Below are positions 5,016 through 35,231 of a stretch of 36,669 nucleotides of DNA, piece by piece (position 1 is the first letter of the stretch; the number at the start of each line of letters is the position of its first letter). Location: assembly GCA_039589315.1 (NCBI GenBank), contig JBDHHQ010000046.1, positions 1 to 36,669 of the forward strand. Direction: 5' to 3'. Both the position numbers and the translations under genes were made by a program. Source of the stretch: Gemmatimonadota bacterium (GTDB lineage Bacteria; Gemmatimonadota; Gemmatimonadetes; Longimicrobiales; Gaopeijiaceae). The notes beneath the pieces were generated by a model that was not told where the DNA came from, made no database searches, and saw nothing but the letters and a program-made list of their open reading frames with translations.

Positions 5016-5054
5016 GCGGGCGAGCGCAAGGCATTGGCATTGAAAGGAGTGCGC

Positions 5055-6929: not shown

Positions 6930-7056
6930 CCTCGTTCTGGCCTCCTTGAAGGACCCCGGCGTCGAGCCGACTGGCCTTCCGTCCGCGCCACGAAAACGGT
7001 CGCGACTGGCCGCACTCCACCTTGGCGGGGTATGCCATCTCCTGCAAGGTTCGTGC

Positions 7057-7070
7057 GCAAAGCGAGTGCC
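7057..7070 (-). promoter_or_regulatory. Sigma-54 (-24/-12) promoter-like motif
   Basis: Minus strand reads GGCACTCGCTTTGC, i.e. GG-N10-GC with GGCAC and TTGC, about 130 nt upstream of the tadG-like gene. Confidence 0.55.
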
Positions 7071-7441
7071 CGAATCAATGGACCCCTCGTCGAATGTTTC
7101 CCGCTCTTCGTGCCCGGAACGTGGCGTCGCCGCCACACCTGTAGCCCTCCGTAACGCCCTAGTGGCGGTCGGGCGACCGTGCCCCTGTGCCTTGAAAGGG
7201 CACGGCTTCCTGCAGCAGGCCCGCTTCCGCGCCTCTGCGGTAACGCAGCCCGATCCGGCGACGGCACGTCGGTCCGCGTCCCGCGCGACCAGAGGTGCGA
7301 CTTTCGTGCCGTGCTCCCCACCGCTGTCCCCCGGCGGCGATCCCGGCTTATTCTGACTCAGGCGACCTCCCGGCGGCCGAGCCGCCGTGGCCACCTCCCC
7401 ACACATTGAGGCGCCGGCCCAACGCCGCTTCAGACGGACCC

Positions 7442-8185: not shown

Positions 8186-8228
8186 CTGGCACAACGCCGG
8201 CTGGAGTGGAGCAGCGTCGCGCCAATCC

Positions 8229-9779
8229 CTATCCGCCCACCGGACACCCGGGTGGCCATCCTCCCTGGGGGGCAGCTTGGGGCGGTTGGCCCACCGATGC
8301 CCGCAGCGTGACCACGGCCGCTGTCGCGTCGCAATACCACACGTCCCACCCACTGCCTTCGGTCAGCGTGTGGACCAGCAGGGCCCTCGGGGGCAACAGG
8401 GCCACCGTGATGCCGAGGGAATCGAGAGCGGTCTCCCATCCCGGTCCCAGCTCGGCAATCTTCAGTGCCTCGCCGACCAGGTCCTCGCCGTAGTGATCCG
8501 TTCCCCCGTCGATGAAGACCCTCTGCTCGGGCCAGGCCAACAGCATGTAGCCACCCCAGGTGACGTCGTGGAAGACGCGCCCTTCGAGACCGGCCGATCG
8601 CGCCTGCTCGACCGCGGCAATCGGAAAGACGCCCGGATCGAACTCGTCGGGCACCACGGCGACGCCGCCCGGCGATCCCCGCGTGACAGCCAGGATGATC
8701 AGCACGACCAGGGTCGCGGCCGACCACGGCCCCGGCCGGCTCCGGGCCTGGTCGCGGGAAAAAGCCGCACGTACTCCTCCCCGGTCCGGAAGTCTGCGCC
8801 AGAAGGGATCCAGGTGGAGGGCCGCGACGGGATATGCCACGAACCCGAACAGCGCGAGGTTGCGGCGGGCCCGTAGGGCGAAGAGGAGATTCGAAGCGAT
8901 GGCCAGCGTCCGGGGCCACGTGGGCCGACGCCGGCTCCAGGCGATGGCGGCCAGCACCACGGCGATGCCCGCCAGCATCACCGCGCCGCTGGCCGTGCCG
9001 AAGTCGGGCGGCTGAAACTCCTCCGTGACCTCCAGCAGGAGGGTGAGGCCGAAGAAGTCGCGGACGTGCCGGTGGAGCTCGAGGCCAGTGGGGTTGATCA
9101 CCGTGGCCGCCAGCCCCAGGGCCAGCAGGGCGACGTGGGCCCGGGCCCGGCCGAGCCACTCGGCCCGGTCCTGCGCCGCGACCGCTTCCAGCAGGTCGCC
9201 CGCCAGGTAGGTCCCGACCAGGAGCAAGCCGTAGACGAAGCCGCCGTGCATGTTGCACCAGACGGCGAAAAGGGGCACCGCCCACCCGGCCCGCTTGACG
9301 CTCGTGCCTTCGAGGAGCGGGAACAGGAGCGCGACGCCGAGCATGGTGAACAGGTGCGGCCGCGCCACCCAGTGGGCCGAGCTCATGACGGCGGCGCCCA
9401 TGATCGCCAGGTAGGCGAGGACGGGCTCCACGCCACGGGACAGCAGGAAGCGGCACAGCAGGCCGTAGCTCACGGCCAGGATCAGGCCGGCCGCGACGGC
9501 CACCCCGGCCAGGCCACCGACGCCGTGGACCAGGGCGAAGAACAACTCGCTCCCCCACTCGAACGCCAGGAACGGCTCTCCCGCTCGCGTCCAGGAGAAG
9601 ACATCCTGGTGGAGGACGCCCCCCCGCTCGAGCATCAGCTGGCCGAGACGGATATGACGGGCGAGATCGCCGTCGCTGTTCACCAGCCGGCCGGCGAACC
9701 CCAGGGGAATGACGAGGGCCCAGAGGACGAACACCAGCTCCGACAGCGACGGGCGGGGCAAGCGCACCGGTCCGTTCAC
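8229..9779 (-). CDS. Polytopic membrane protein, GT-C-like
   Basis: First loop DGDLARHIRLG (DxDxxxH), ARPHLFT, WCNMHGGF, INPTG, EEFQPP, WGGY and VFIDG motifs, with about 11-13 TM segments by eye. Confidence 0.75.
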   Translation of the reverse strand: MNGPVRLPRPSLSELVFVLWALVIPLGFAGRLVNSDGDLARHIRLGQLMLERGGVLHQDVFSWTRAGEPFLAFEWGSELFFALVHGVGGLAGVAVAAGLILAVSYGLLCRFLLSRGVEPVLAYLAIMGAAVMSSAHWVARPHLFTMLGVALLFPLLEGTSVKRAGWAVPLFAVWCNMHGGFVYGLLLVGTYLAGDLLEAVAAQDRAEWLGRARAHVALLALGLAATVINPTGLELHRHVRDFFGLTLLLEVTEEFQPPDFGTASGAVMLAGIAVVLAAIAWSRRRPTWPRTLAIASNLLFALRARRNLALFGFVAYPVAALHLDPFWRRLPDRGGVRAAFSRDQARSRPGPWSAATLVVLIILAVTRGSPGGVAVVPDEFDPGVFPIAAVEQARSAGLEGRVFHDVTWGGYMLLAWPEQRVFIDGGTDHYGEDLVGEALKIAELGPGWETALDSLGITVALLPPRALLVHTLTEGSGWDVWYCDATAAVVTLRASVGQPPQAAPQGGWPPGCPVGG

Positions 9780-9908
9780 TCCGCTCGGGCCCGGGGGCCC
9801 TGGCGTGGCCCAGTGTGGCGTGCGCCACGCCCGGGGGCGGCGCCCTTTCGCCCCGGCGCGCGGCGGTCGACACTAAGCCTGATAGAAACCACCTCGCTCC
9901 GAGAGCCG

Positions 9909-10742
9909 ATGGAACACGATCTCTTCCAGCTTCACGCCGATCTCGAAGAATCCCATTGGTGGTTCCTCGGCCGCCGGGACATCATGCATCGCGTGGTGCG
10001 CTGGGCCCTCCCGCCGTCGGCCGAGTCCCTGATCCTGGACGTGGGGTGCGGCACCGGCGCCAACATCGGGTCCCTGTCCACCGATTACAAGTGCGTCGGC
10101 GTAGACCCGTCGGCCGAGGGCATCCGCCTCGCTATGCAGCGCGTCACGGATGTGACCTTCGTCCGTGGTCAGGCGCCGGACGACGTCGAGCAACACGCCG
10201 CAAAGGCAGATCTGTTCATGCTGATGGACGTGCTCGAGCACGTGGCCGACGACTTTCGCTTGCTCTCGTCGCTGTTGGCCGTGGCGAAGCCGGGCGCGCT
10301 GGTGCTGATCACCGTTCCTGCCCACCCCTACCTGTGGAGTGAGCACGACGTACGACTGCACCACTACCGGCGTTACGAGCCCCCACGCCTCCGACGGGTA
10401 TGGGAAGGCCTTCCGGTGGAGGAGTTGCTCTTCTCCCACTTCAACACCCGACTGTATCCCATCGCTCGTGTCGTGCGGGCCGTCAGCCAGCTCCGTGGGC
10501 GTTCTGCTGGACTCCGCAACACCGATCTGACCATGCCGCCGGCTCCGGTCAACCGATTCCTCCGCCGCACCTTTGCAGGAGAAGCAGCGCGGCTGTTGGC
10601 GGTCGCGAACGGAGGGGCGCGACGACCCTATCCGACAGGGCTCTCGCTCATGGCCCTCCTGCGGCGGGGCGAGGGAACCGTCGAGCCCCGCTTCCGGCCC
10701 GCCGCTGTCCCCGCGGACCGGCACCGGCCACCATCGGCGTAG
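9909..10742 (+). CDS. Class I SAM-dependent methyltransferase
   Basis: EESHWWFLGRR, ILDVGCGTG, DVLEHV, ITVPA, WSEHDVRLHHYRRY; start ATG 9909. Confidence 0.9.
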   Translation: MEHDLFQLHADLEESHWWFLGRRDIMHRVVRWALPPSAESLILDVGCGTGANIGSLSTDYKCVGVDPSAEGIRLAMQRVTDVTFVRGQAPDDVEQHAAKADLFMLMDVLEHVADDFRLLSSLLAVAKPGALVLITVPAHPYLWSEHDVRLHHYRRYEPPRLRRVWEGLPVEELLFSHFNTRLYPIARVVRAVSQLRGRSAGLRNTDLTMPPAPVNRFLRRTFAGEAARLLAVANGGARRPYPTGLSLMALLRRGEGTVEPRFRPAAVPADRHRPPSA

Positions 10743-10745
10743 GGA

Positions 10746-12869
10746 TCAGCTCGTCAGATCCTCCCCCGCCGACCGACTCGGGGGTTGTCCCTGTCTGATC
10801 GGTAAGCCCCCGACCCACCTACGCCCCGCCGGCACAGCCACGAGCGCCAGTCCCAGCAACGTCAGCAGCAGCCCCGTCCACTCCACCCACGTGGATCGGA
10901 ACCGGAGGCGAACTTCTTCGGAGGTGGGCACCACCAACATCAGGTTCGGCGCGGCGCGGTAGGGACCCCTGGCTCCCTCGGCGTCCCAATTCGGGAAGTA
11001 CGACACCCTGATCAGATGAGGGAGGCCGACCGCCGAGGTGGTGAAGCGAACCTGCCGTGGCCCGACCTCGAAGCCGGTGACCGGGTTGGCAGGCCCCGGC
11101 GCCCCCGAGGTGGGTCCGGCCCCGAGCTCCCGTGCCGCGCTGTCTCCCAGCTCGAGGCCCGGGTCCCCAGCGACGACCCACCGGTCGAGCGCCTCGGCCT
11201 GCTCGAACCAGGCCCGGGCTGCGGCTCCGAGCTCGCTCGTGCTCACGACCCTCGGATCATGGCGGGCCACCTCGACGGTCTGCACGCCGGCGAGCTCGAA
11301 GATGGCGTAGCCGGCCCGGTCCACGCGCCGCTCCAGATCCGGGTGGCCGTCCGCCGCATCCCGGACCGCGTCGGTGAAGGCGATGAAGTAGCGCACGCCC
11401 AGCATGCGCATGTGCTCCACGCCCCTGGCGAAGTCGAAGGGGTATCGAGCGTCCAAGACCCGGAAGCGGAGGTACGGCTCCGGGCTGGTCTCGCGGAAGA
11501 CCATGGCGACGTACGGCTCCGTCAGCGACGACTCCCGGAGCAGTCCGGGCAGCGTGGGATGGTCCGGGTCCCAGTAGGGGAGAAGGTCCAGGGCGAACGA
11601 GCGGCCGAATCGCACGACCGTGCTGTCGGACTGCCAGTGCACCCGGCCGGGCGGCAGCAGGCGCACGTCTCCCAGTAGCTGTTGGAACTCGTCCGCCGCC
11701 GGGGCCGCAGGGTAGCCCTCCAGGACCTCCGTGGCGTACTCCCGCACCGTGCCCGGTCCGCGGAGGACGATGAGTGCTCCGATCAGGAGCACACTCACGC
11801 CGAACCCCGCCGCGTCGACGGGCGAACGATCCCGCAGGGTCCGCTCCAGCGACGACGCGACGAAGACCCCCGCCAGCACGTGGACGCCCACAAACCACAG
11901 GGGGAGCAGCCTGTCGCCCATCTGCAGCCCGGGAAGCCAGCTGAGCACCGGGCTCAGAGCCGTGAGCGCCAGGAGAGCGAGCCACGTCGCACCCCTCGGC
12001 ACCAGCCGCGCCGCACCACCCACGGCGAGCGGAAGCACGAACAGGATCTCGAGGGGGAAGACGGCGTTGGCTGCCAGCTCGAGATTCCACTCGGTGCGGG
12101 CCAGATAGCCCGATCGAGCCAGGAACGGGAAGGCCCACAACCCAGCCAGACAGAAGCCCAGGATCCAGGAGGTGAGCACGGTCCGACGGGCGCGCCGCCG
12201 GGACAGGGCGGCGCAACCCGCCACGACCGCACCGAAAGTCGGAATCACGTGAGACAGGGCCGTGAGCGCCAGTACGACCGATGCCGAGACCGGCCTGGGC
12301 GTTCCGTCACGGAGCGTCCGGGTCAAGATGCCGATGTACAGGACGCAGAAGAGCAAGGACCATGCATACGAGAACTCACCCAGCAGCGTCGAATAGAGGT
12401 TTCCGCCCAGGTGCCAGTGACTCTCCATGAGCAGGACGCACGACCCGACCAGAGTCGTGACCGCGGCCGAGAGCGAGGACAGCCCACCGGAGCGAGCGAG
12501 GAACCACACGGCCCAGGGAAAGCCGACTGCGCTGAGGACCGCCACGACCTTCAGCGCCACGGTGAGCGGAAGCGCGACCGAGAGGCTCGCGACCATGCCG
12601 GCGGGCAGCGGGAAGTAGAAGTAGTAGAGCGGGAATCCGCCGAACCAGCCGGGACTCCAACCCAACACCCTCCCCTCCGACAGCCAGTGCTCGACCCAGT
12701 AGGAGATGGCGTAGAGGTGGCCGCCGAGGTCGACGCCCGTGGGGACAGCGGGTGTGAGCACCCGGGTGGGGCCGACGAGGAGGAGCACGGCCAGGGACGC
12801 CAGGCCGGGTCCCAGGATCGCGTACCGGTATCGGTGGGCGCGGTCGCCCTCGACGGAAGTCGCGGTCAT
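10746..12869 (-). CDS. PTPS-related (PF10131-like) / GT-C-like membrane protein, paralog of 1-1608
   Basis: TGVDLGGH, GWSPGWFGGFPLYYFYFPL, GGNLYSTLLGEFSY, many TMs and a large C-terminal extracytoplasmic loop. Confidence 0.85.
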   Translation of the reverse strand: MTATSVEGDRAHRYRYAILGPGLASLAVLLLVGPTRVLTPAVPTGVDLGGHLYAISYWVEHWLSEGRVLGWSPGWFGGFPLYYFYFPLPAGMVASLSVALPLTVALKVVAVLSAVGFPWAVWFLARSGGLSSLSAAVTTLVGSCVLLMESHWHLGGNLYSTLLGEFSYAWSLLFCVLYIGILTRTLRDGTPRPVSASVVLALTALSHVIPTFGAVVAGCAALSRRRARRTVLTSWILGFCLAGLWAFPFLARSGYLARTEWNLELAANAVFPLEILFVLPLAVGGAARLVPRGATWLALLALTALSPVLSWLPGLQMGDRLLPLWFVGVHVLAGVFVASSLERTLRDRSPVDAAGFGVSVLLIGALIVLRGPGTVREYATEVLEGYPAAPAADEFQQLLGDVRLLPPGRVHWQSDSTVVRFGRSFALDLLPYWDPDHPTLPGLLRESSLTEPYVAMVFRETSPEPYLRFRVLDARYPFDFARGVEHMRMLGVRYFIAFTDAVRDAADGHPDLERRVDRAGYAIFELAGVQTVEVARHDPRVVSTSELGAAARAWFEQAEALDRWVVAGDPGLELGDSAARELGAGPTSGAPGPANPVTGFEVGPRQVRFTTSAVGLPHLIRVSYFPNWDAEGARGPYRAAPNLMLVVPTSEEVRLRFRSTWVEWTGLLLTLLGLALVAVPAGRRWVGGLPIRQGQPPSRSAGEDLTS

Positions 12870-12897
12870 CTCCGCCGGGGCACTGCGGGCACCCAGA

Positions 12898-13422
12898 TCA
12901 CTCCACCCAGGAGCCGTACTCGGCCCGGACGTCGGCCCGGGAGAGCCAGTAGAGCAGGAAGACGGGGAAAGCCAGGAGGATGCTCAGCGCCACGATTATG
13001 CCGAACGTGGCCGAGCCGTACCAGTAGACCGCAGATACGTCCGGGACTCCGCCCACATACCGCTGGACCCACAACAAGCCCACCCCCATCGCCGACACCG
13101 ACCAGACGATCGCGAGCCACGCCCACAGGCGACACCGGCCGACACCCGCCCTGTGATGACGGCGTAGCGCCAGGGAGCCGGAAAAGAGCAGCAGCGCGAG
13201 CGCCAGCTGGATCAGCGCGCTGACGAGCCGCCAGGCAGCGGGAGGTAAGGCCCGGACCACCAGGGCGGCGAGCTCCGCGCCGAGCACGCGGGCCCAGTCG
13301 TCTTCGGTCCAGCCCAGCAAGAGCAGGTCGTCCAGCTTGTCGAGAAACATCAAGGCCGCCAGAACGATGCCGACCGTGCTCACGACCGTCGGCCAGCGCG
13401 GAGCTTCACCGGACCCGCTCAT
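12898..13422 (-). CDS. Hypothetical membrane protein (about 4 TM)
   Basis: Hydrophobic ORF; its ATG overlaps the stop of the upstream gene (ATGA). Confidence 0.7.
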   Translation of the reverse strand: MSGSGEAPRWPTVVSTVGIVLAALMFLDKLDDLLLLGWTEDDWARVLGAELAALVVRALPPAAWRLVSALIQLALALLLFSGSLALRRHHRAGVGRCRLWAWLAIVWSVSAMGVGLLWVQRYVGGVPDVSAVYWYGSATFGIIVALSILLAFPVFLLYWLSRADVRAEYGSWVE

Positions 13423-14015
13423 GCGTACTGCTCGTCGTAGTCGCCCACGCCGGCCAGGACGGCCTGGCCCCGGGGCGAGAGCCGATAGCCTACCCGCAGG
13501 CTCTCCGTAAGACCGATCCCCTTGAGCTTGCGAACCCTGGCCTTGAAGTCGGCGCGTTCCATCACGAGGTCCCGGGCCAGGTCCGCAGCGCGCTCCCGGG
13601 GCCTATCGCGGAGCAGTGTCAGGACGCGACGGGTCCAGGGACCCGCGGCGGACCGCGCGTCGAGACGCCGGAGGCGCCGCAGAATCTCCTCGAGCTCCTG
13701 CCCCTCCGGAATCCGCTCGCGCAGCTCGACGCGCGGATCGGGCCCGGCCAGGGAGAGCCGAATGCGGTAGAGGTCACCGCCCACGCGCCCCGTCAGATGG
13801 GATCGCAGCGAAGCCACGTCCTCGAACCCCGCCGCGGCGGCGTCGGATTCAGTGATCCCCTCGAGGGGCACGATGTCCACAGCCTCCACCGCCAACTGGC
13901 CGATCGACGTGAGAAGCGTCCCGCCCGCTTTCACGGTTGGACGCCGCCACTGCCGAAAGGCCAGCGTGATCGAGCCGTCGACGATTCCCCTCAGTGTGTC
14001 CTGCTTGAGCAGCAT
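13419..14015 (-). CDS. ASCH/PUA-like domain plus C-terminal winged HTH protein
   Basis: GIVDGSITLAFRQWRRPTVKAG, ITESDAAAAGF, DPRVELR, FKARVRKLKGIGLTESLRVGYRLSPRG. Confidence 0.8.
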   Translation of the reverse strand: MLLKQDTLRGIVDGSITLAFRQWRRPTVKAGGTLLTSIGQLAVEAVDIVPLEGITESDAAAAGFEDVASLRSHLTGRVGGDLYRIRLSLAGPDPRVELRERIPEGQELEEILRRLRRLDARSAAGPWTRRVLTLLRDRPRERAADLARDLVMERADFKARVRKLKGIGLTESLRVGYRLSPRGQAVLAGVGDYDEQYA

Positions 14016-14110
14016 CTCATGGCTGATTGAACGGGAGACCGCACCGATTCATGCCTGGGTTCCTCCATCAGCATGCCTGCAGCGAGGCCGACGAGCAAGG
14101 TGCGCGCGAA

Positions 14111-14145
14111 GGCGCCGCGGGCCCCGTGGTGGAAGGCCCGGCGCC
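14111..14145 (-). terminator. GC-rich hairpin after the hydrolase gene
   Basis: GGCGCC(GC)GGGCC...GGCCCGGCGCC inverted repeat just downstream of stop 14169; U-tract is weak. Confidence 0.4.
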
Positions 14146-14168
14146 AAACCGGACCGCAGCTCCAGGAC

Positions 14169-15548
14169 TCAGCGAGACCCTTCGACGATCGTCGGCGAAG
14201 CACCGTACGCCCGGGCCAGCTCCAGGAATTCTCGTTGTGCCTCGACATCAGCGAACAGCGCACCTGACGTCGCCAGGTTCTGGCTGGTCACCGCGACCAC
14301 GAGGCTGGAGAATGCGGCCACCAGCTCCGGCAGCGTGAACCGGCAGTGGCCGTACTGCTGTGACGGGAGGACCGTGATGCGACTCCCGGATCCAGCCAGG
14401 ATCACCTTCTCTTCATAGAGAGCCTGGTGCCAGAAGGGCACGATCGGATCACGCGTCGTGTGCATCGCCACCAGTGGGACCCGGAGGCGGCCGCTCGTCT
14501 CATACCGGCTCTCGACGTTGGTCAGCGCGGTCGGGTCGGCCGTGAAGCGCTCGACCCCTTCGTTGAGCGCCTCGTCGTCGTCGGATCCGCTGTACGATCG
14601 GCCAGTATTCCCGAACGCGTTCCCGCCCAGCACGGCCGTGGCATCGTTCGTCCCGAAGAAGCTGTACCGGAGGACGTCGACGGCCGCGCTCGCCAACGAC
14701 TCGGAGTCGCCCTCGTCCAACGCGACACCGGTGACGCGGAACAGCTGGTCAGCAGCCTCGGGATCGGCCGCGAGGGCCGCCCGGCTCTCTCCCTGCAGCG
14801 CTTCCCAGCGCGCGTCGGTGATCGTCTCCACCGGGTCCGGCACGCCGACGGCGCTCCCCGGCATGACCCCGGGGAAGTAGTAGTCGAACACGACACGGAA
14901 GTCTCCCAGGTGTTCGAGCTGCCGGCGGAAGTCCCCCACGGGACCGCACAGGGCCATGCCGCCGTCGTAGGCCTCGACGCTGCGTCCCTCCTCCAGGGCC
15001 AGGGCGGTGGACAGACCTCCCTCCGATGCTCCCACGAGATAGCTCACGGCCGGAAGCCGAAGAACCCCGACGAGCCCGCCCACATTCTGGTGGGCGAACC
15101 TGGCGAGGTCCTCGAGGTCTTCGGCCGCTTCGGCCGCGACCAGTCCGTTCCTGCGGTAGCTCGTGGTCGCGTATCCGTAGTAGCCGGACACCCCATTCCC
15201 GATTCCCCTGGCGATGTCTCTGATCTCCCTCCCGCCGATCTCGTCACTGGGCAACGCCAGGGGCGTGCCGGGAGGCCGGTCAGGGCCCGGATTGGTGTAG
15301 CCGTGGGCCCAGGTGATCATCTCGCCATTCCAGAGCGAAGGCAGGCATACCTCGAGGAGGGCTCCATCGCTCGATGCCCCGGTGACGCAATCCTGGAGCG
15401 ACTGAGGGGGCTCCACCGGGAGCTGGGGAGCGGGCGGGGGCTCAGGCGGAGGTTCGGTCGTCGAGTCACCACAGCCGGCCACGCCCAGCCCCGTCGCCAA
15501 AGCCAGAGCCAGGAGGGCCGATGTGCGAATCCCATGCCGTCCGGTCAT
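14169..15548 (-). CDS. Lipoprotein alpha/beta hydrolase
   Basis: AGGAG RBS before ATG 15548, lipobox VAG-C, Pro-rich linker, HGY, GASEGG nucleophile elbow, RDPIVP, YGHC. Confidence 0.8.
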   Translation of the reverse strand: MTGRHGIRTSALLALALATGLGVAGCGDSTTEPPPEPPPAPQLPVEPPQSLQDCVTGASSDGALLEVCLPSLWNGEMITWAHGYTNPGPDRPPGTPLALPSDEIGGREIRDIARGIGNGVSGYYGYATTSYRRNGLVAAEAAEDLEDLARFAHQNVGGLVGVLRLPAVSYLVGASEGGLSTALALEEGRSVEAYDGGMALCGPVGDFRRQLEHLGDFRVVFDYYFPGVMPGSAVGVPDPVETITDARWEALQGESRAALAADPEAADQLFRVTGVALDEGDSESLASAAVDVLRYSFFGTNDATAVLGGNAFGNTGRSYSGSDDDEALNEGVERFTADPTALTNVESRYETSGRLRVPLVAMHTTRDPIVPFWHQALYEEKVILAGSGSRITVLPSQQYGHCRFTLPELVAAFSSLVVAVTSQNLATSGALFADVEAQREFLELARAYGASPTIVEGSR

Positions 15549-15750
15549 GCCACTCCTGTCCATGTAGAGGCCTCGTCGCTCGATCCCGCCGGGGCCGTCC
15601 CGGGAGAGATTCCGGTCGCCCTCCCGGGCGTCGTTGCCCTGTGCGCTCGAGTGCTGCGCCCGCTCGATACGATCGCGGGACCGGTACAAGATGGTCTGTC
15701 GGGAGTTGACCGGACATGGCCTGGGGGAGGTCCAGCCTTGCGGTCCCACC

Positions 15751-15796
15751 GTGCAACCATATACTACATTGTGAGCATCACATTGTGAGATTGCAC
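15751..15796. promoter_or_regulatory. Putative operator with direct repeats in an AT-rich divergent promoter region
   Basis: ACATTGTGAG at 15766 and 15780, bracketed by the inverted pair GTGCAA (15751) and TTGCAC (15791). Confidence 0.5.
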
Positions 15797-15918
15797 GAGT
15801 CGTCGGCTCGCGACGACTTCGCCGAGCAGGAACGCGGGAGCGGTAGGCCGGGACGGGGAACGAACACCGGGCTCTGTCCGCTCCGAGCGCCCGGCTGTGA
15901 CCGCACTGCGAGGAGGGG

Positions 15919-16698
15919 ATGATGGGGATGAGGATGACGTTGGCAGCTGCGCTGCTGCTGCTTGCCGGTGTGTGGCCGGCGTCGGCCCAGAGCGGCGACG
16001 AGCCGGTCGAGGTTCCGCTCACCGTCCACGCTGGCCGGTTGGTGGTCCCCGTGGCCGCGCCGGACGGCACCGAGCTGGCCTTCCTCCTGACCACCAGCAG
16101 TGGTGTGACCGTGTTCTCCGAGACGGGGGCGGCCCAGGCCGCGGGTCAGTCAGGACTCACCCTGGCAGGCCTCCCGGTTCCCACGGATGAGACGCACACG
16201 GTCCCCGATGACGACCTGACCATCGACGGCAAGCGCTTCGACGGCATGATCGGCCCGAACATGCTCAACCAGTTCGACGTGCTCATCGACGCCCCCGGGG
16301 AGCGGCTCGTGCTCAAGCCCGTCGGCCGATCCGTCGAGTGGGAGGGCGTGGCGCTGTCGGATCCGGTTCGCCTGCGCGTCTACCACGGCGTGATCCTGGG
16401 CCTCGACGTCGAGCTGAACGGCACCGAGTATCCGGCTGCGCTGGACCTGGCGACGCCGACATTGGTGGTCAACGAGGGCGTGCGGACGGACGCGGGCCTC
16501 CACGACGAAGACACGGCGACGCTCGGATTGGGAAGCGCGGCCCACCCGGATCTTCCGGTGCGCGTCCTCGACCTGGAGATCTTCCGCAGGTGGTCGCCGA
16601 ACGGCGAGGGTTTCGTGATGGTGGGGGCAGCTTTGGCGCGCGACTGTGCGATCTCCCTCAGTTGGGTCCACCGGGAAATGAGGACGTGCGTGCGATGA
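15919..16698 (+). CDS. Secreted two-domain retropepsin-like protein with degenerate catalytic motifs
   Basis: AGGAGG RBS, signal peptide ending ASA-Q, DGMIGPNMLNQFDVLID motif. The DTG positions read TTS and DLA. Confidence 0.7.
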   Translation: MMGMRMTLAAALLLLAGVWPASAQSGDEPVEVPLTVHAGRLVVPVAAPDGTELAFLLTTSSGVTVFSETGAAQAAGQSGLTLAGLPVPTDETHTVPDDDLTIDGKRFDGMIGPNMLNQFDVLIDAPGERLVLKPVGRSVEWEGVALSDPVRLRVYHGVILGLDVELNGTEYPAALDLATPTLVVNEGVRTDAGLHDEDTATLGLGSAAHPDLPVRVLDLEIFRRWSPNGEGFVMVGAALARDCAISLSWVHREMRTCVR

Positions 16699-24649: not shown

Positions 24650-24987
24650 AACGTCGCCGGCCAATCGACCTTCGCTGGTCGCTCCGGCCACGCCGAGTAC
24701 CATCTCCCCCGCGCCACCACCCCCGAACACCACCCCCGGAGTCGCCCGTCAGCTTCACCCTGGACTACGGCCGCTGTCCCGTGAGACCAGCTCCCTGATG
24801 AGAAGATCGGCGAGCTCATCGAAGTGTTTGAGAGGGCACACGCTCAGGTTCTTGATCGCTGAGCCCGTTACGGTCGCGCGCCGCGGTCGCACGACCCGAC
24901 GACGCTCCCGGCCCTCAGCGCGCGAAGGCCAGAGACCTAGGTGGCCCCTGGCCTGTACACGAAGACGATGGTCGGTGTCCGTCTACG

Positions 24988-25350
24988 CTACGTCGTGACG
25001 ACACGATCGGCGGCGGCCACCTTTTCGGCGAGATGCGTCGGCGTCAGATACCCTTCGCCACACCAGGCCGTGACAAGCTCTTCCGCGACCCCACGGGCGC
25101 GGCAGCACGCGCCTCACCCATAGACCGGGATCTGGTTGGACCTCATGTACTCCAGCAGTTCCTTGACGCTGGGCAGTCCCACCGGCTGCACGTTGGCCGC
25201 GACGGTCTCGTTGAAGAGCACGACGGCGTCTCCCTGCAGAGCGATCTCCACGTCGTGCCCGGCCTCCTTCGCGCCCTTGGCCATGAGCAGGTTCAATCCT
25301 GCGCGAGTCGGATCTTCCGATCCGGACGAACCGAGGTAGAGGAACTTCAT
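24988..25350 (-). CDS. DsrE-family protein, probable selenoprotein (in-frame UGA at 25114-25116)
   Basis: GGGAGG RBS. MKFLYLGSSGSEDPTRA...LQGDAV...IPVYG-[UGA]-GACCRARGV...KVAAADRVVTT-TAG gives a complete 120-aa DsrE with UxxC. Confidence 0.85.
25066..25113 (-). promoter_or_regulatory. Candidate bacterial SECIS element
   Basis: Directly 3' of the UGA: inner stem CCGCG-CCC-[GUG]-GGG-U-CGCGG and outer pairing GGC..CGUG/CACG-GCC. The GU-containing apical loop is about 19 nt from the UGA. Confidence 0.65.
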
Positions 25351-25586: not shown

Positions 25587-26051
25587 TCAGATCGCCAGGG
25601 CAGTCAACGGCTTCAGATCCGGCTTGACCCAATGGGACCGGGCCTCCGGGGACCAGAGCACCTCGTCACTGAAGAACTCCGAGGCCAGCCGCCTCTGATC
25701 CCAGAACTGTCCCACCAGGGCATTCGCCAACGAGAGCACGTCGCCCTTGTCCGGGCTGAACGACCGTAGAAACATCCGCACGACCGCCAGCCAGAAGACC
25801 GTCAGGGTCTCGTGATACCCCCCCCGCGGGGTGGTGGAGATCCCATGGGCATGGTTGTACCGCTGGATGCCCAGGATCATGCGCCGGGTCGCTTCGTGCT
25901 CCCTGTAGTGGTACAGGTACCAGAGCGCCACGGACAGGTGTGCCCGATGGTCCCACTCCGCCCTGGGCAGCGCACCCGACTCGAAGTCGTCCACCAACTC
26001 GGCGAGCTCTACGCACGTCCTGAAGGGCCGCGGCCCGGCCTGCCTCTTCAT
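25587..26051 (-). CDS. Conserved-looking hypothetical protein with His-rich motifs
   Basis: WDHRAHL, GYHETLTVFW, EARSHWVKPDL; ATG overlaps the glutaminase stop (ATGA). Confidence 0.75.
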   Translation of the reverse strand: MKRQAGPRPFRTCVELAELVDDFESGALPRAEWDHRAHLSVALWYLYHYREHEATRRMILGIQRYNHAHGISTTPRGGYHETLTVFWLAVVRMFLRSFSPDKGDVLSLANALVGQFWDQRRLASEFFSDEVLWSPEARSHWVKPDLKPLTALAI

Positions 26052-27670
26052 GATGCCTCCTCCAGGGCCGTCACGACGTCCTCGTGGCCAGCCCGCAATG
26101 CGTCGTCCAGGGGCGTCGCACCCCACCGGTCGAGAGGTGCGGGATCGACGCCGCTACCCAGAAGGTACGACACGACCGCGACCTGTCCCTCCGCAGCGGC
26201 CAGGTGCAGCGGAGTGCGTCCGTCGTAGTCGGCGTGGTTGGGGTTCGCGCCCTCGGCGACGAGGACGCGCAAGCCCGGGAGGTCGCCCTCCGACGCGGCC
26301 CAGCACAGGTCCACGACGCTCGCCTGGCGGGCCCTCCGGTCCTGGCGGCGGGGGTCCTTCTTCCCATGGGCGCCGCCCACCAGGCTGTCGTAGTTGTGGA
26401 AGTTGAATTTCTTTACGAGCCGCTGGCAGAACTCGACCCCCCGCACGCTGTTGCCCAACGCGTCCAGCCGGGGGGACCACACGGCCAGGCCCATGACGTT
26501 GGGAACGACCACCACGATCGCTCCGCTCACGCCGCTCTTCGCGGGCAGCCCGACGCTGAACGCCCACTCGCCGCTGAAGTCGTACATGCCGCAGGAGTAC
26601 ATGAGCGACAGGCACTTTTGCACGGTCTCAGGACCGAAGACCACTTCTCCGGTCAACGGGCAGACGCCCCCGTTGGCCAGAGTGGCCGCCACCACGGAGA
26701 ACGCCCTGGCCGTGATCTGGAGTGAGCAGCACTGGAAGTAGAAGTCCAACACCTCGAGCAGATCCGTGCCCTCGGGAAACGCCCCGTTCTCACGCAGGAA
26801 GTACCCCAGCGCGAAGTTCCGGTCGGCGGTCCGCCGCTCGGAGAGGTAGGTGGCGTTGTCGAAGCCGGGCGCTACCCCGCCGGAGAGCCGGGTCCACATG
26901 TCCACCACATATTCGAATCGCTCGGCCACCCCGAGGTCGGGTCGGATCAACGCGGCGCTCATGATGGCACCGGCGTTGATCATGGGGTTGTGGGGCAGCC
27001 CCTTGCTGTTGAGCGCCAGCTCGTTGAAGCTCTGGCCGCTCGGTTCCCGACCCACGTGCCGATGCACGCCCTCCTCGCCGTGGTGCTCGAGGGCAAGGCT
27101 GTAGCTGATGGGCTTGCTCGAAGACTGGACCGAGAAGGGCACGCCGGCGTCGCCCAGCGACAACCGTTGACCGTCGACCGTGCACAGACCCAGTCCGAAG
27201 AGATCGGGATCGACCCTGCCCAGCTGGGGGATGTACGACGCCGCTTCCCCGCCCTCATTGGCCCGAGTCGCCTCGAACAACCGCTCGATGTCAGCCGAGA
27301 AGCTCGCGAAATCCGGCACCGCGAGGTTCCCGAGTAGGGCCCGCTCGACGAGCAGGCTCGATGGCTGAATCACCCGCCGAAAGGCGTCCCTGTCCAAAGG
27401 AATCGGATCGTCGGCCGCCTCGTCCTCCAGCGCCCGGATCAACGAGAGGGTCTTATCCAGCCGAGGGTCCCTCGCCTCGAGCCCGGCGACCTCGAGCTTC
27501 CTGATCAGCTTCCGCGGGGATACCTGATCCTGCCCCGGGTCGGCCACCAGGTCGAAGAGCTGGCCATCCCGTCCCCCCGCTCCTTCTCCGGGGCGAGTGT
27601 CCCCCGGATCGAAGGAGGACACGCTCACCGCCTCGGCCAACCGGGGCGGGTTCTGCGCTAGCGAGATCAT
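26048..27670 (-). CDS. glsA: Glutaminase A with N-terminal EF-hand-like region and C-terminal ankyrin repeats
   Basis: ASYIPQL, QSSSKP (SxxK), GREPSG, HNPMINAGAI, SCGMYDFSG, PAKSGVSG, GNSVRG; ankyrin DYDGRTPLHLAAAEG and DRWGATPLDDA. Confidence 0.93.
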   Translation of the reverse strand: MISLAQNPPRLAEAVSVSSFDPGDTRPGEGAGGRDGQLFDLVADPGQDQVSPRKLIRKLEVAGLEARDPRLDKTLSLIRALEDEAADDPIPLDRDAFRRVIQPSSLLVERALLGNLAVPDFASFSADIERLFEATRANEGGEAASYIPQLGRVDPDLFGLGLCTVDGQRLSLGDAGVPFSVQSSSKPISYSLALEHHGEEGVHRHVGREPSGQSFNELALNSKGLPHNPMINAGAIMSAALIRPDLGVAERFEYVVDMWTRLSGGVAPGFDNATYLSERRTADRNFALGYFLRENGAFPEGTDLLEVLDFYFQCCSLQITARAFSVVAATLANGGVCPLTGEVVFGPETVQKCLSLMYSCGMYDFSGEWAFSVGLPAKSGVSGAIVVVVPNVMGLAVWSPRLDALGNSVRGVEFCQRLVKKFNFHNYDSLVGGAHGKKDPRRQDRRARQASVVDLCWAASEGDLPGLRVLVAEGANPNHADYDGRTPLHLAAAEGQVAVVSYLLGSGVDPAPLDRWGATPLDDALRAGHEDVVTALEEAS

Positions 27671-27671
27671 G

Positions 27672-28952
27672 TCAGCCTCCCTGGGTGACGGCGCGGTTCG
27701 AGTCCGCCAAGCCGGTAAGGGTGTGCCGGTCCCGCGCGTAGGCGCGCTCCGCGTGCTCGAACAGATCGATGCCGTACTCTTCCGCGATGCGAGAGGCACG
27801 CAGCCCAACCGTGGCCCGGATGGCCGTGAGGATCACGACCGTGCCGCACGCTGCGAAGGTGGCTGCTGCCACCACGCCCACGACCTGTGCCCACATGAGC
27901 CCGGGGTCGCCTGCCAACAGGCCGTCCGCTCCACCTGCGTTCACCGCCGTCGTGGCGAACACGCCGGTCAGGATCGATCCCACGATGCCTCCCACCCCGT
28001 GGCAGGCGAACACGTCCAGCGTGTCGTCCAGGCGAGTGCGGCTCAGCACTCGCAGGGCCGCGAAGCTGGCACCCGCCGTCACCGCGCCGATGAGCATGGC
28101 CGCCATCGGCGTCACGAAGCCTGCCCCCGGTGTGATGGCCACCAGTCCAACAACCGCGGCGATCGACGATCCGGTCGCAGTGGGGCGACCCGACATGAGC
28201 CCCTCCAGAGCGATCCACGCCACGACCGCCGCCGCGGCACTCAGCATGGTGGTCACCACCGCGTGGGCAGCCAGCCCGTCGGCGGCAAGCGCTGAACCGG
28301 CGTTGAATCCGAACCAACCGAACCAGAGCAGGGACGCGCCCAGCACGACGAACGGCACGTTGTGAGGGGTGGCCTCCGTCTCCGAGTCCGTGGCTCCGTT
28401 CCTCGGTCCAAGCATCATTGCCGCCACCAGGGCTGAGACCCCGGCGCTCACATGGACCACGGTTCCGCCGGCAAAGTCCAGCGCACCCATCTCTCCGATC
28501 CACCCGCCCGGCCCCCATACCCAGTGTGCCAGCGGATTGTAGACCAGCAGTCCCCAAAACAGGATGAACAGCACGTAGGCGCGGAACTTCATCCGCCCCA
28601 CGACGGCGCCGGAAATCAGCGCGGGTGTGATGATGGCGAACATCATCTGAAACGCCATGAAGGCCATGTGGGGAATGCCCTCGGCGTACCGCGGCTCGAC
28701 GGCCGCCGTGACGCCACCGAGGCCGATCCACTCCAGCCCTCCGACCCACGCCGAGCCGGGGGCGAAGGCCATCGAGTACCCGATCAGGGCCCATTCGATG
28801 GCGATGATGCCCAGGGCGACGAAGCTCATCTTGATGGTGTTGACCACCTGCTTCTCGCGCACTAGGCCGCAGTAGAAGAACGCCAATCCGGGCGTCATGA
28901 GCAGCACCAGGGCGACGCTCACCAGGACCCACGCCGTGCTTCCGGTATCCAT
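27672..28952 (-). CDS. amtB: Ammonium transporter
   Basis: LMTPGLAFFY, FQMMFA, DFAGGTVVH, WFGWFGFNAGS, DDTLDVFACHG (both pore His present), C-tail EEYGIDLFEH. Confidence 0.95.
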   Translation of the reverse strand: MDTGSTAWVLVSVALVLLMTPGLAFFYCGLVREKQVVNTIKMSFVALGIIAIEWALIGYSMAFAPGSAWVGGLEWIGLGGVTAAVEPRYAEGIPHMAFMAFQMMFAIITPALISGAVVGRMKFRAYVLFILFWGLLVYNPLAHWVWGPGGWIGEMGALDFAGGTVVHVSAGVSALVAAMMLGPRNGATDSETEATPHNVPFVVLGASLLWFGWFGFNAGSALAADGLAAHAVVTTMLSAAAAVVAWIALEGLMSGRPTATGSSIAAVVGLVAITPGAGFVTPMAAMLIGAVTAGASFAALRVLSRTRLDDTLDVFACHGVGGIVGSILTGVFATTAVNAGGADGLLAGDPGLMWAQVVGVVAAATFAACGTVVILTAIRATVGLRASRIAEEYGIDLFEHAERAYARDRHTLTGLADSNRAVTQGG

Positions 28953-28996
28953 GATCTATGTCTCCTCTCCACGCAGTCGTGTATTGCCCGGGAACG

Positions 28997-29029
28997 GTCC
29001 GGGCGCCCACGAGGGGTAGGCGCCCGGAC
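28997..29029. other. Intercistronic hairpin between glnII and amt
   Basis: 11-bp perfect inverted repeat GTCCGGGCGCC...GGCGCCCGGAC with no U-tract. Confidence 0.55.
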
Positions 29030-29043
29030 GCGCACCGCGGATG

Positions 29044-30141
29044 TCAGCCAGCTCCGACGAGGGCAGCAGATGCCCTCGGCGATTCACTCGTGGCCGTCGC
29101 GCCGCTCACGCCGCAGATCGTCTCGATGAGGAGGGCGCAAACCCGGTAGGGATCGGAATTGGCTCCGGGCCGGCGGTCTTCCAGGTATCCACGGCCACGC
29201 TCCTGGACCTGCCGGGGGACCCGGATCGACGCGCCCCGGTCGGCAACGCCACTCCTGAACTCGTCGATGGAGCAGGTTTCGTGGAGCCCTGTCAGCCGGT
29301 CAGCCAAACCGGCGCCGTATTCGGCGATGTGCTCGGCATGACGGGTCTGGAGCGCGAAGATGGCGTCTCGGATCGCGGACATACCGCCGGGCTCACGCAT
29401 GGCACGGGTCGAGAAGTTCGTGTGGTTCCCGGCGCCGTTCCAATCGCCGGAGACCGGCTTGTTGGAGAAGCTGGCGGAGATTCCGAAGTCCTCTCCGATC
29501 CGGTGGAGCAGCCACCGCGCGATCCACAGGTGATCCGAAACGGTCAGTGGATCCGCCGTCTCGCCGGCCACGCCCCGGTAGCCGATTTGGAACTCCCACT
29601 GCCCGGCCATGACCTCGGCGTTGACGCCGTAGATCATCAGATCGGCCTCCAGGCAGGCCCGGGTGTGGGCCTCGACCATCTTCCGTCCGAAGGCCCGGCC
29701 CGCACCCACACCGCAGTAGTACGGGCCCTGGGGCTCGGGGTAGCCATCCTTGGGGAAGCCCAGGGGCTGCCCGTCGGCGAACAGTGTGTATTCCTGTTCG
29801 AACCCGACCCACGGGGCGTGATCGTCACCCGCCTGCTCCAGGACGGCCCGAAGCCGAGCCCGGGTGTTGCTCGCGTGGGGGAGGCCGGCGTCGTCGAAGG
29901 TCTCGCACAGAACGAGGTATCCACCCACCCGAAGCGGGTCGGGCACCACCGCGACGGGCCTAAGCGTCACGTCCGAATCGTCTCCGGCAGCCTGGTTGGT
30001 CGAGCTGCCGTCGAAGCCCCATTCCGGGAAGGACCAGGGGTCGACCGGCCCACCGTTTAGCTCCACGATCCGGGTCTTGGACCGGATTCGCTGAGTGGGC
30101 TGGGCGCCGTCGACCCAGAGGTATTCTGCCGTGGTATGCAT
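29044..30141 (-). CDS. glnII: Glutamine synthetase type II
   Basis: AEYLWVDG, RSKTR, WGFDGSSTNQA, GFEQEY, PQGPYYCGVG, NAEVMAGQWEFQIG, DWNGAGNHTNFST, RLTGLHET, DRGASIRVP, GYLEDRRP; 365 aa. Confidence 0.95.
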   Translation of the reverse strand: MHTTAEYLWVDGAQPTQRIRSKTRIVELNGGPVDPWSFPEWGFDGSSTNQAAGDDSDVTLRPVAVVPDPLRVGGYLVLCETFDDAGLPHASNTRARLRAVLEQAGDDHAPWVGFEQEYTLFADGQPLGFPKDGYPEPQGPYYCGVGAGRAFGRKMVEAHTRACLEADLMIYGVNAEVMAGQWEFQIGYRGVAGETADPLTVSDHLWIARWLLHRIGEDFGISASFSNKPVSGDWNGAGNHTNFSTRAMREPGGMSAIRDAIFALQTRHAEHIAEYGAGLADRLTGLHETCSIDEFRSGVADRGASIRVPRQVQERGRGYLEDRRPGANSDPYRVCALLIETICGVSGATATSESPRASAALVGAG

Positions 30142-32356: not shown

Positions 32357-34135
32357 TCAGCGCTCGAGCGCCATGCGCAGCGTCGCCCAATGACGAAAGA
32401 CGTTGTGGGCCGCGGTCGCCGGCAGCGGTTCGCGTAGGATCCGGGCCCGCCGCAGTCGGCCTTTCACCCGGCGGACGCCGTTGTGCCACCTGCGACGCAA
32501 GGTTGGGATCTGTTGGACCTCGTCTAGAAGGGCGAGGCCGAAGCTCGGTGGGATGAGGTCGTCCAGCCGGCTGGTGGTTGTCATGATCCATCGCTTCAGC
32601 ACGGCCGGGTGTGCGCGGATCTCCCCTCGCCAGTCGGCACGATAACCCTCCCTCGCTGCCGGGGAGATGGCTGCCATCTCAGGAGCCAGCTCGGCCACGG
32701 CTCGACGGTAGAGCTTCTTCCCGGTCAGCAGCCGAGAGGGAACGCGCTTCATGAAGTCCAGGACATCCGCATCGAGCCACGGGTTACGGACGGTTGCATG
32801 GGCTCCGATGAAGCGTTCCCGCCAAGGCAGCATCTCGTGGCCGATGCGTTGATCGAAGCCGATCTGGAAGCGGATCGTGTTGAGAACGCGCGATCCCGGC
32901 TGACGGTCGATGATGTCCCTGACCTCGTCGTGAATCGACTCGTTGATCCGTCCGAGTAGCCCGCGGGGAAAGCTCCCGGACACGGTAGGCGGAAGACGTA
33001 GCTCGCGGAACCTTGCCCGCCGCCATAGGTGCAGCTCCGTCTCTACCACCGTGGAGCCGCTGAAGCCCATGCGCTCTTCGCCCACGAAGACGACCGGCGC
33101 GCTCGCGGCGGCAAGCTCCGGACCCAGCTCCTTCCACATGTCCACCTCGTATGCCGCCACCGCGGCCGCCTCACTCATGGTCGCGTTGGCGCGGAGGTGC
33201 TCCATCAGGTTTCCGTGATAGCTCTCATACATTCGGTGTGACAGGCCCAGCGTCGCCGCGACCGTGCGCGCCACGTAGGCATCCCCACCAGGTTCAGCGT
33301 CGCCGTGGACGTAGGAAAACGTACGTACGTCACTCCGCCCGAGCGTTTTACTCAGAACCGACGCGATCCCGATGGAGTCGAATCCGCCGCTGAGCGACAC
33401 GTAGAGATCCCGCCCCGGTTCCGCTCGTCGTCGCACGGCCTGAACCATGAGCTCCTTCAGATCGGCCACGAGGTTCGACTCGTCTACCTCGCCTTCCGGT
33501 TCCCGCAGGCCGTGCGACCAGTACTCCCGGGAAGCCATGCCTCCGGCCCGCAGCTCGTGGACGTGGGCGCGAGGCAGGACGCGGATTCCGTCGTAGGGGG
33601 TGCGCCCGTTGAACGGAATGCCAGCTGCCAGCAACCACCCGATCCCCAGGACGTCCAGTCCATGCTGGTCGGTCGGCTGGGCACCTAGATTACTGGTAAC
33701 ATAATGGCCGGTAGCGTCTTCGCTGTGGAACAGACGGCGGGACCCACTTCGATCGGGGATGACCAGCAAGCGGTCCTCGGCGCGGTCGATGACGATCAGC
33801 GCGAACGATCCCCGAAGATCCGGGACCAAAGACTCACCCCTTCGTCGGAACTCCTCCGCGACCCAAGCAGCAGACTTGCCTTGGTCGTTGAGAAGCTCCC
33901 CGTGCAGGACCACGGCAACACGGCCACTCGCATCCTCGCCGAGCTCCGCCTCAGAGCTGAGGCCCAGGTGTAGCGTCCATGCGGTAGACTCGAACGTCAC
34001 ATCCGGGTCTCGCCCGTAGCATCTCCGAAACCCTCGGTGTGCAGCTTCCGGGTCCGCGGTCGAGCGGCGCGCGCAGAATGCTTCGACCCTGGACCTGAAA
34101 GCCTCGCGTATCGGGACAGCCGAAGGGTGCGACAT
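32357..34135 (-). CDS. Asparagine synthase-related (AsnB-like) protein, start 34135 or 34171
   Basis: HGELLN, LRGSFA, DRSGSRRLF, SLSGGFDS (PP-loop), RNPWLD; no N-terminal Ntn Cys. Confidence 0.85.
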   Translation of the reverse strand: MSHPSAVPIREAFRSRVEAFCARRSTADPEAAHRGFRRCYGRDPDVTFESTAWTLHLGLSSEAELGEDASGRVAVVLHGELLNDQGKSAAWVAEEFRRRGESLVPDLRGSFALIVIDRAEDRLLVIPDRSGSRRLFHSEDATGHYVTSNLGAQPTDQHGLDVLGIGWLLAAGIPFNGRTPYDGIRVLPRAHVHELRAGGMASREYWSHGLREPEGEVDESNLVADLKELMVQAVRRRAEPGRDLYVSLSGGFDSIGIASVLSKTLGRSDVRTFSYVHGDAEPGGDAYVARTVAATLGLSHRMYESYHGNLMEHLRANATMSEAAAVAAYEVDMWKELGPELAAASAPVVFVGEERMGFSGSTVVETELHLWRRARFRELRLPPTVSGSFPRGLLGRINESIHDEVRDIIDRQPGSRVLNTIRFQIGFDQRIGHEMLPWRERFIGAHATVRNPWLDADVLDFMKRVPSRLLTGKKLYRRAVAELAPEMAAISPAAREGYRADWRGEIRAHPAVLKRWIMTTTSRLDDLIPPSFGLALLDEVQQIPTLRRRWHNGVRRVKGRLRRARILREPLPATAAHNVFRHWATLRMALER

Positions 34136-34226
34136 CGCGGATCGTGACGTCAAGCTCAATGCCGGCTCCATCTTGGGGCGTCTCTCATAGGGCTGTGCCG
34201 GGCACAGCGCCGCAAAAACCGGGCCG

Positions 34227-34466
34227 GTGCGCCTGCATCGCGGCCCCGAGGTCACTCCCTTTGCCGCTCAGCCCCGATCGAGGCGTCGCCACCGGAAGGA
34301 CCCGCCCCACCGCACGCAGCGGAGTCACCCGCTCCTACCCTCCAGACCCTCCTCCTCGCGCTGCGCTGCCCTGATGGCCCGCATCTATGAAGTCTTCCCG
34401 CTGCTCCGTCCCTCGTGCGGGGGATCCATGCGCATCCTCGCCTTCGTCCCCCGAAAGGTCTTTTGA
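34227..34466 (+). pseudogene. IS91-family-like transposase C-terminal remnant
   Basis: AALMARIYEVFPLLRPSCGGSMRILAFV matches the typical 'WAxLLARIYEVFPLxCPxCGGxMRILAFI' tail, with W and the first C decayed. Confidence 0.65.
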
Positions 34467-34688
34467 AATCCCTTTCCGTGGTCAACGAAGCCAACTCGGC
34501 CGTCGTGGCCATCAGGCGCGCCGCGCAGTTACTGGAGAGCTCGGGTGACCAGACCCTGCATGAGTCTTCGAGCCGCTGGATGCATGCGACGAGATGACGG
34601 AGCTCGTGGCGCCGGAAGGGTAGAGGAGCTTGACGATGGGTTCGACCTGTAGCGATGCCACACGCCTGGCCTGTTACTTGCTTCCTTA

Positions 34689-35231
34689 GTGGGGGCGAGC
34701 GCGGCGCTCCGACCCCACTGGCTCGGACGACGCGACATTCGCCTGCAGGTAGGGGGCCGCTTGGAACCAACCGCGTTGCGGCAGCGCGTCGCTGTGGTGC
34801 GCAGGGCTCGGTCAGGGGAGTGGGGCCGTATCCTCGAGATCCTCGAGACCGCCAACTTTCACCGCATCGGCGGGCTGGAAATGCCCGAGTTTCCCCTGAG
34901 TGATTGCTTCGTCGCGGAGGTCGACGGGCTGGTAGTCGGCGTCGCAGGGTACCGGATCTTGGGTCCCACCTTGGCCAAGACCACGCTCCTGGCCGTGCAT
35001 CCAGATTTCAGGCAGGGTCGAAGCATCGGCGCCGATCTGCAGCGGGCCAGAATGGACCACGTCAAGACCCTCGGAATCCGCATGCTGCGGACAAATGTCG
35101 ACGATCCTCGCGTCGTGCAGTGGTACGAGCGACGATTCGGTTACCGTCGAACGGGCGCTACAGTACCCAAGACCGAGCCATTCGGTCGCGATGACATCGA
35201 TCACTGGACCACACTCGAAGTGGACCTGTAG
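34689..35231 (+). CDS. GNAT family N-acetyltransferase (start uncertain)
   Basis: FVAEVDGLVVGVAG, LLAVHPDFRQGRSIGADL, WYERRFGY. Confidence 0.8.
   Translation: MGASAALRPHWLGRRDIRLQVGGRLEPTALRQRVAVVRRARSGEWGRILEILETANFHRIGGLEMPEFPLSDCFVAEVDGLVVGVAGYRILGPTLAKTTLLAVHPDFRQGRSIGADLQRARMDHVKTLGIRMLRTNVDDPRVVQWYERRFGYRRTGATVPKTEPFGRDDIDHWTTLEVDL

Follow-up and report, generated by a model that had tools for sequence, protein, structure and literature searches.

The DsrE-like gene and its surroundings

The minus strand of the window (the whole 36,669-nt stretch of DNA analysed) carries a 120-aa coding sequence that runs from an ATG at 25350 to a TAG stop codon at 24990-24988 and is crossed at codon 79 by an in-frame TGA (25116-25114). 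Read through this TGA, the product has the form MKFLYL...IPVYG-U-GACCRARG...ADRVVTT and is predicted from its sequence, its Pfam match, and its orthologs to be a DsrE-like selenoprotein. It matches the Pfam DsrE family (PF02635) over residues 1-119 and model positions 1-115/116 (E 1e-14), with a score of 55.1 bits against a curated cut-off of 22.7 bits, and the frame is the one that an earlier note on this DNA had drawn past the TGA to the TAG. No NCBIfam family is matched at E 0.1 by the window protein or by a Rokubacteria-type ortholog. Translation would begin behind a Shine-Dalgarno-like sequence, AGGGAGGG (25363-25356, minus strand), 5 nt 5′ of the ATG, and AGGAG-type sites precede the same start codon in orthologs too.

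The gene stands alone in the window, where it is convergent with an alanine-racemase-like gene. A 179-aa ORF ends 236 nt upstream of it and is itself preceded by glnA, amtB, and a glutaminase gene. Within the window, no tusA, dsr, or hdr gene adjoins the DsrE-like gene. A strong hairpin without a U-tail lies 3′ of the stop codon (24926..24954, minus strand; z -2.45 for 24900-24990) and may serve as a terminator or stabiliser. The promoter and terminator scan returned no sigma-70 promoter and no terminator, and no clear ECF promoter is apparent by eye. Further upstream on the minus strand, at 25508-25489 and 25451-25430, are direct repeats of the patterns ACTGTGCC-N4-ACTGTGCC and TGATACG x2, both unique in the host genome. 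The former pattern is present in 13 viral contigs, and in L173 (by Pfam) and L168 (integrase-like by eye) an integrase gene is found no more than about 250 nt away from it. These repeats may, as a weak suggestion, be a relic integrase arm site at an insertion boundary.

Other parts of the window have features of their own. On the minus strand at 26048-30141, a type II-like glnA, amtB, and a eukaryote-style glutaminase gene with EF-hand and ankyrin repeats form one run, placing glutamine synthesis and hydrolysis side by side. An asparagine-synthetase-like gene with short ORFs on its flanks lies at 32357-34770 (minus strand); such genes are known from lasso-peptide-type clusters. About 13 kb of long ORFs at 3537-16671 (minus strand) yield a single Tad/TadE domain as their only Pfam match.

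Conservation of the UGA codon and its motif

Of 78 loci examined from genomes and metagenomes, 76 cover codon 79, which is TGA in 68 (a count that takes in the window gene itself and a frameshifted duplicate from genome G030), TGC in 3, a Ser codon in 4, and a misaligned frameshift in 1. The 41 codons that follow the TGA are conserved at 63-78% identity in orthologs of different phyla with TGA at the same codon, and thus the conservation of the 120-aa frame across the TGA is, by this comparison, not due to chance. Among 96 close database proteins, 79 stop with VYG or VFG as their last residues, at position 78, and the set contains no full-length Cys form. A close relative of 78 aa from an independent Logan assembly (P0252) ends at the same position.

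More distant homologs indicate what the UGA replaces. Among the best 150 representatives from a profile search, 134 cover the region; 65 of these have no residue at the UGA column, mostly ending just before it, and the 69 with a residue have Cys in 43, Ser in 13, and another residue in 13. U79 also falls on the first Cys of the CxxC motif in YchN (1JX7) and on the Cys of 3MC3, a DsrE3A structure; the two are weak profile matches of low similarity (E 0.011 and 0.002, respectively). These alignments bear out the earlier expectation that the UGA would fall on a conserved Cys, and codon 79 is accordingly placed, as a putative selenocysteine (Sec), at the DsrE catalytic-Cys column.

Around the UGA, 14 loci including the window have a common U79-G-A-C82-C83 motif (25102..25116 in the window, minus strand), i.e., UxxC with an adjacent Cys, which is invariant in all of them. 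These UGACC loci form a clade with a support of 100/99, whose named members, a Betaproteobacterium, an Anaeromyxobacter, and a Solibacteraceae, show 63-71% identity. The argument that a further Cys beyond this motif's UxxC points to relay or redox chemistry stood for one residue and fell for another. Cys83 is kept in 14/14 UGACC loci and is found also in 4 Cys-form representatives and at locus L135. Cys97 is private to the window gene, the other 13 UGACC loci having Ser there, and it was rejected as a functional residue.

Some related DsrE proteins differ in architecture. Export-like N-terminal leaders, several with a twin-Arg-like RRR as judged by eye, occur in L155-L159, P0115, and P0161 and in L030, L032, L033, L035, L102, and L160; C-G-x-C is the motif of the Cys forms among them, and another group, which lacks an active-site Cys, has S-G-G-S-S. 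Among the profile-search representatives, P0099 is a 427-aa fusion of one or more Usp domains with a C-terminal DsrE domain (CEGCC). A scan of longer proteins at E 1e-8 gave no DsrE fusion, which is weak evidence.

A SECIS-like hairpin

Folding and codon constraint point to a bacterial SECIS-like hairpin at 25102-25083 (minus strand), with an 8-bp stem (CCGCG/CGCGG plus CCC/GGG) and a U bulge. Its GUG loop (25094-25092) starts 19 nt past the UGA, the predicted energy is -12.3 kcal/mol, and the hairpin has the features of the bacterial SECIS consensus as set out in the portion of PMC13188914 cited here. Its stability is no better than that of shuffled sequence (z -0.1 to 0.9), and the filter used to recognise such hairpins is a loose one, passed by 410/1000 random host TGAs and by 6/7 non-TGA homologs.

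Codon usage in the loop is more telling. In 49 distinct TGA sequences, the Arg86 codon in the loop is CGT 30 times, CGG 19 times, and CGC not once, although CGC accounts for 85/172 of the other Arg codons in the same TGA genes and for 4/7 of the Arg86 codons in non-TGA homologs. Since Arg86 is never encoded by CGC in genes where CGC is common elsewhere, the loop is, on this codon evidence, under synonymous constraint. The lower stem differs between the two clades, each of which has compensatory changes: the UGACC clade keeps the five lower pairs in 9/9 distinct rows with one compensatory change (63/500 shuffles, not significant), and in the non-UGACC clade the pairing is displaced by a single base and three pairs have changed on both sides, with a covariation score reached in 9/500 shuffles (28 rows). 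All of these sequences are related, so that the changes are not independent events.

Selenocysteine machinery and other probable selenoproteins of the host

The host genome encodes SelA (531 bits), SelB (335 bits), SelD (370 bits), and tRNA-Sec (75 bits), all above curated cut-offs, on contigs C1, C26, C5, and C139, respectively. The selD gene itself has one TGA, in the motif GAG-U-ACK. Of the 51 tRNAs found, the tRNA-Sec (anticodon tca) is alone in having a UCA anticodon. Beyond the host, 25 genomes were checked for selA and selB. All 18 with the TGA form have selA (16/18) or selB (17/18) over cut-off; in the other 7, which have Cys or Ser forms, both genes score over cut-off in 4 and neither does in 3. 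The earlier note had predicted selenocysteine genes in the host, which are present, and its proposal that the UGA encodes Sec gains support from the TGA conserved in 68/76 loci, the host machinery, and the constrained loop codon. The gene is thus best read, with a probability of about 0.96, as an intact, stand-alone selenoprotein gene of the DsrE-like (COG2044 or 'predicted peroxiredoxin') type in which Sec is inserted by read-through.

Other probable selenoproteins accompany it in the host. A rough codon-bias heuristic for UGA read-through yielded 209 candidates and is insensitive, the window DsrE-like gene being missing from them; 19 were hand-picked by eye for scanning, their motifs having been recognised beforehand. 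Twelve of these 19 match catalogued selenoprotein families (two FdhA, three Prx-like, two AhpD, two OsmC, a DUF3179 protein, an HMA-domain protein, and an ArsM-like methyltransferase), and the remaining seven are unsupported or plain gene junctions. Besides the ArsM-like gene, the probable host selenoproteins (two FdhA, two OsmC, a DUF3179 protein, three Prx-like, two AhpD, an HMA-domain protein, and SelD) lie in the host genome (G000) at C6:5052, C3:170974, C96:4570, C12:23251, C20:6092, C6:90082, C42:2548, C6:83168, C74:7083, C29:55289, C138:2195, and selD on C5. Most of these genes have G-loop hairpins.

Two more TGAs are possible read-throughs, L126 (C98:18734; HGH-U-YGHE near the C-terminus) and L131 (C53:88178; PIGW-U-MEEY); neither product matches a Pfam or NCBIfam family, and both TGAs may be plain stops. 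The host also has a 2.7-kb run of 18 tRNA genes (C68:16206-18887), all on the same strand, that partly duplicate tRNAs elsewhere in the genome and are possibly a mobile tRNA array.

Distribution and gene neighbours of the orthologs

Searches of 200 genomes from the order, 60 relatives, and 400 genomes from the phylum turned up no further UGACC gene; these samples overlap, and in the 400-genome one the scoring was limited to 11 candidates per genome. Other UxxC forms are present in four order-mates. The same-genus genome G215 (94% complete) has selA and a Sec methyltransferase gene and no match to the window DsrE-like gene; synteny is not kept there, the alanine-racemase-like gene having other neighbours. 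The UxxCC subclade is patchy in distribution and spread across phyla, a pattern that fits lateral movement. Searches of viral and plasmid sequences gave one partial viral match and one distant plasmid DsrE, which do not point to a phage or a plasmid as the vehicle.

The neighbours of the orthologs vary, with one recurrent exception, an upstream gene for an ArsM-like methyltransferase that has an in-frame TGA of its own (e.g., WTG-U-IAGA). In loci whose upstream DNA extends for at least 600 nt, and with L096 counted by a fragment only, this gene lies directly upstream in 6/12 UGACC loci and 13/39 other-U loci, or, counted by distinct proteins, in 4/8 and 11/32. Of the 51 loci whose flank is long enough, 32 have no such gene upstream, and those with the link group in two subclades of the tree and so are not independent. 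A third, distant DsrE lineage of the Cys form stands beside such a methyltransferase in 2/20 loci that were picked by the methyltransferase. In seven loci, genes for a SigH-like sigma factor and an RsrA-like anti-sigma factor precede the methyltransferase gene. Operons of the Rokubacteria/Deferrimicrobiaceae type (L040, L041, L069, L082, L086, and L090) consist of a SigH-like sigma factor, a zf-HC2 anti-sigma factor, one or two Sec methyltransferases, and the Sec DsrE protein, with up to three selenoprotein genes in tandem. No description of the methyltransferase-DsrE link was found in the literature searched, and an earlier one may exist.

In the host, an ArsM-like Sec methyltransferase gene is found on contig C53 (TGA at 47086; L114:6466-7257), with the motif LWAS-U-IGGA and a clear SECIS-like hairpin, and it is not adjacent to the DsrE-like gene in the window. 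The link between methyltransferase and DsrE is optional, since G215 has the Sec methyltransferase without the DsrE gene.

These methyltransferases differ from solved ArsM at the arsenic-binding positions. In 10/10 sequences, the C72 column has Val or Thr and the C174 column has Gly; C224 is the only As-binding position kept, as Sec or Cys, and the C53 protein likewise lacks the other two Cys. The orthologs' neighbour therefore does not have the three Cys (C72, C174, and C224) of an arsenite methyltransferase. Its best NCBIfam matches are nonetheless arsenite-methyltransferase families, all under cut-off (for NF008823, 207-235 against 263). The idea that an ArsM-like partner means arsenic was downgraded, as two As-binding Cys are missing from the alignment.

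Proposed function and competing explanations

By analogy with characterised DsrE proteins, the selenoprotein probably has a sulfur- or selenium-carrier or redox role. By the pathway established in bacteria, the hairpin would be bound by SelB and Sec-tRNA, which would insert Sec79. The protein would then form a small homo-oligomer, as in DsrE3A and DsrE, and on the same analogy the Sec79 selenolate would attack a substrate with sulfane sulfur, selenium, or a disulfide, giving a Se-S adduct, which would be resolved by Cys82 with Cys83 as a helper or handed to an acceptor. Gene order in the orthologs suggests, as a tentative identification that falls somewhat short of even odds, that the acceptor or partner is the Sec-containing ArsM-like methyltransferase lacking the arsenic-binding cysteines. 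Since some orthologs adjoin the ArsM-like gene, often behind a SigH/RshA-like pair, sulfur or selenium detoxification is suggested, in which the pair would deal with reactive S or Se species under thiol stress by capture and then methylation.

In its fullest form, this reading would make the DsrE protein and the Sec methyltransferase an undescribed, laterally spread two-selenoprotein module under a SigH/RshA-type thiol-stress sensor, with Sec79, Cys82, and Cys83 capturing sulfane sulfur or selenide and the methyltransferase forming a volatile product, the two acting in trans in the present host. The proposal as a whole is speculative and somewhat unlikely. If true, the module would be the first concrete function for a family uncharacterised since 2005. 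The lead of most interest here is that orthologs are repeatedly found next to a Sec methyltransferase gene and genes for a redox-sensing sigma/anti-sigma pair, as this points towards methylation-coupled S/Se detoxification in soil and groundwater bacteria.

The explanation that competes best, although it is rather unlikely, is that the selenoprotein is a general thiol or peroxide oxidoreductase that has neither an S or Se cargo nor a dedicated partner and whose UxxC alternates between selenolate/thiolate and selenenylsulfide. The UxxC spacing is thioredoxin-like, Table 3 of PMC1088965 lists the DsrE-like type among thiol-dependent redox selenoproteins, and homologs are labelled 'predicted peroxiredoxin' by JGI; the solitary position of the window gene and the variable neighbours of its orthologs would also suit such an enzyme. 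However, Pfam and PDB sequence matches put the protein in the DsrE fold family, and the DsrE members that have been tested are sulfur carriers. Three DsrE lineages share the link to one methyltransferase family, and three Sec-Prx-like genes are already present in the host.

Binding of As(III) or another soft metal by U79, C82, and C83, with the protein serving an arsenite methyltransferase as metallochaperone or reductant, is quite improbable. Three chalcogen ligands within five residues, the sub-threshold matches of the neighbour to arsenite-methyltransferase families, and a MerR regulator and heavy-metal P-type ATPase near L054, L055, and L096 would agree with it, but two of the ArsM As-binding Cys are missing from the neighbour, the same methyltransferase linkage is seen in the larger U-G-x-C clade, which does without a third Cys, and no arsenic-resistance family occurs among the 64 neighbour ORFs scanned. 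Least probable of all are a nonsense pseudogene, an error of assembly, a functional protein of the 78 aa that databases record, and a UGA read as Trp or Cys, given the same TGA and conserved downstream frame across phyla, the co-occurrence of the TGA form with selA/selB, the constrained loop codon, and tRNA-Sec as the sole tRNA with a UCA anticodon among those found.

Comparison with known DsrE-like and ArsM-like proteins

The family of the window gene is not new. As the earlier note had stated, Sec-containing DsrE-like proteins have been described: a 'DsrE-like protein, UXXC' was tabulated for the Sargasso Sea in 2005 (PMC1088965), and a DsrE-like selenoprotein was tabulated for Desulfovibrio vulgaris (PMC1794560). 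Further examples are catalogued in PMC9312934 and in PMC13188914, where, in the portions cited here, WP_014524487.1 is 'predicted with high confidence' with its function uncharacterised, and such proteins are called largely uncharacterised. The window gene is almost certainly an ordinary new member of this family, known since 2005, that databases truncate to 78 residues. It has in common with the catalogued proteins the Pfam domain (PF02635), Sec at the catalytic-Cys column, UxxC, and a SECIS just past the UGA, and it differs in belonging to the UGACC subclade, with the conserved adjacent Cys83, a W-S/C-G-x-G insertion, and no NCBIfam model; its likeness to the D. vulgaris protein and WP_014524487.1 is one of family description. 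The gene call itself is a routine correction, one that applies also to the 79/96 close database proteins cut just before the active site, and because of this truncation the subclade is invisible to annotation. What the analysis adds is the patchy, cross-phylum UxxCC subclade without an NCBIfam model, together with the position of about a third to half of the orthologs directly behind a Sec ArsM-like gene.

By sequence, the closest solved structures are DsrE3A (Metallosphaera Mcup_0681; SSO1125, PDB 3MC3) and E. coli YchN (PDB 1JX7), the identity of 3MC3 as DsrE3A being taken from PMC4175335. YchN has CxxC...RG, and U79 of the window protein is aligned with the active-site Cys of both. DsrE3A is trimeric and bears thiosulfonate on its Cys, according to the portion of PMC4175335 cited here. 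In contrast to the window gene with its UxxCC, DsrE3A has Cys-X7-Cys and is encoded in dsrE-tusA-hdr clusters of sulfur oxidisers; the alanine-racemase-like, glutaminase, AmtB, and GlnA genes around the window gene place it outside DsrE3A and DsrEFH.

Two other DsrE-like proteins are associated with selenium. SaoD of the SAO system is DsrE-like, has CxxC that is sometimes CxxCC, and belongs to a selenoprotein gene cluster (Haft and Gwadz, bioRxiv 2022.07.06.499078). In the portion of that preprint cited here, it is stated to be 'never detected' as a selenoprotein, and identity with SaoD was rejected, the window protein being Sec-bearing, with no NCBIfam match at E 0.1 and no SAO genes nearby. 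YedF/FdhU, as presented in the cited portion of PMC5322559, is a fusion of SirA and DsrE with CGXC that is linked to SelD and proposed for Se redox or detoxification. A DsrE domain and a CGXC-type motif are common to both, and the window gene has no SirA/TusA domain and is not beside selD, which lies elsewhere in the genome; identity with YedF was rejected on these grounds.

The methyltransferase side also has known relatives. The neighbour of the orthologs and the C53 gene of the host, which have UxxG, fall in the broad group of Sec ArsM-like methyltransferases and their fusions (NF008823, the ArsM/AhpD fusion NF041537, NF041536, and NF047649), from which they differ in matches below the curated cut-offs, in the two missing As-binding Cys, and in having DsrE as a separate gene. 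The ArsM-like fusions join a second Sec redox domain to the methyltransferase, much as the separate DsrE gene would do in trans.
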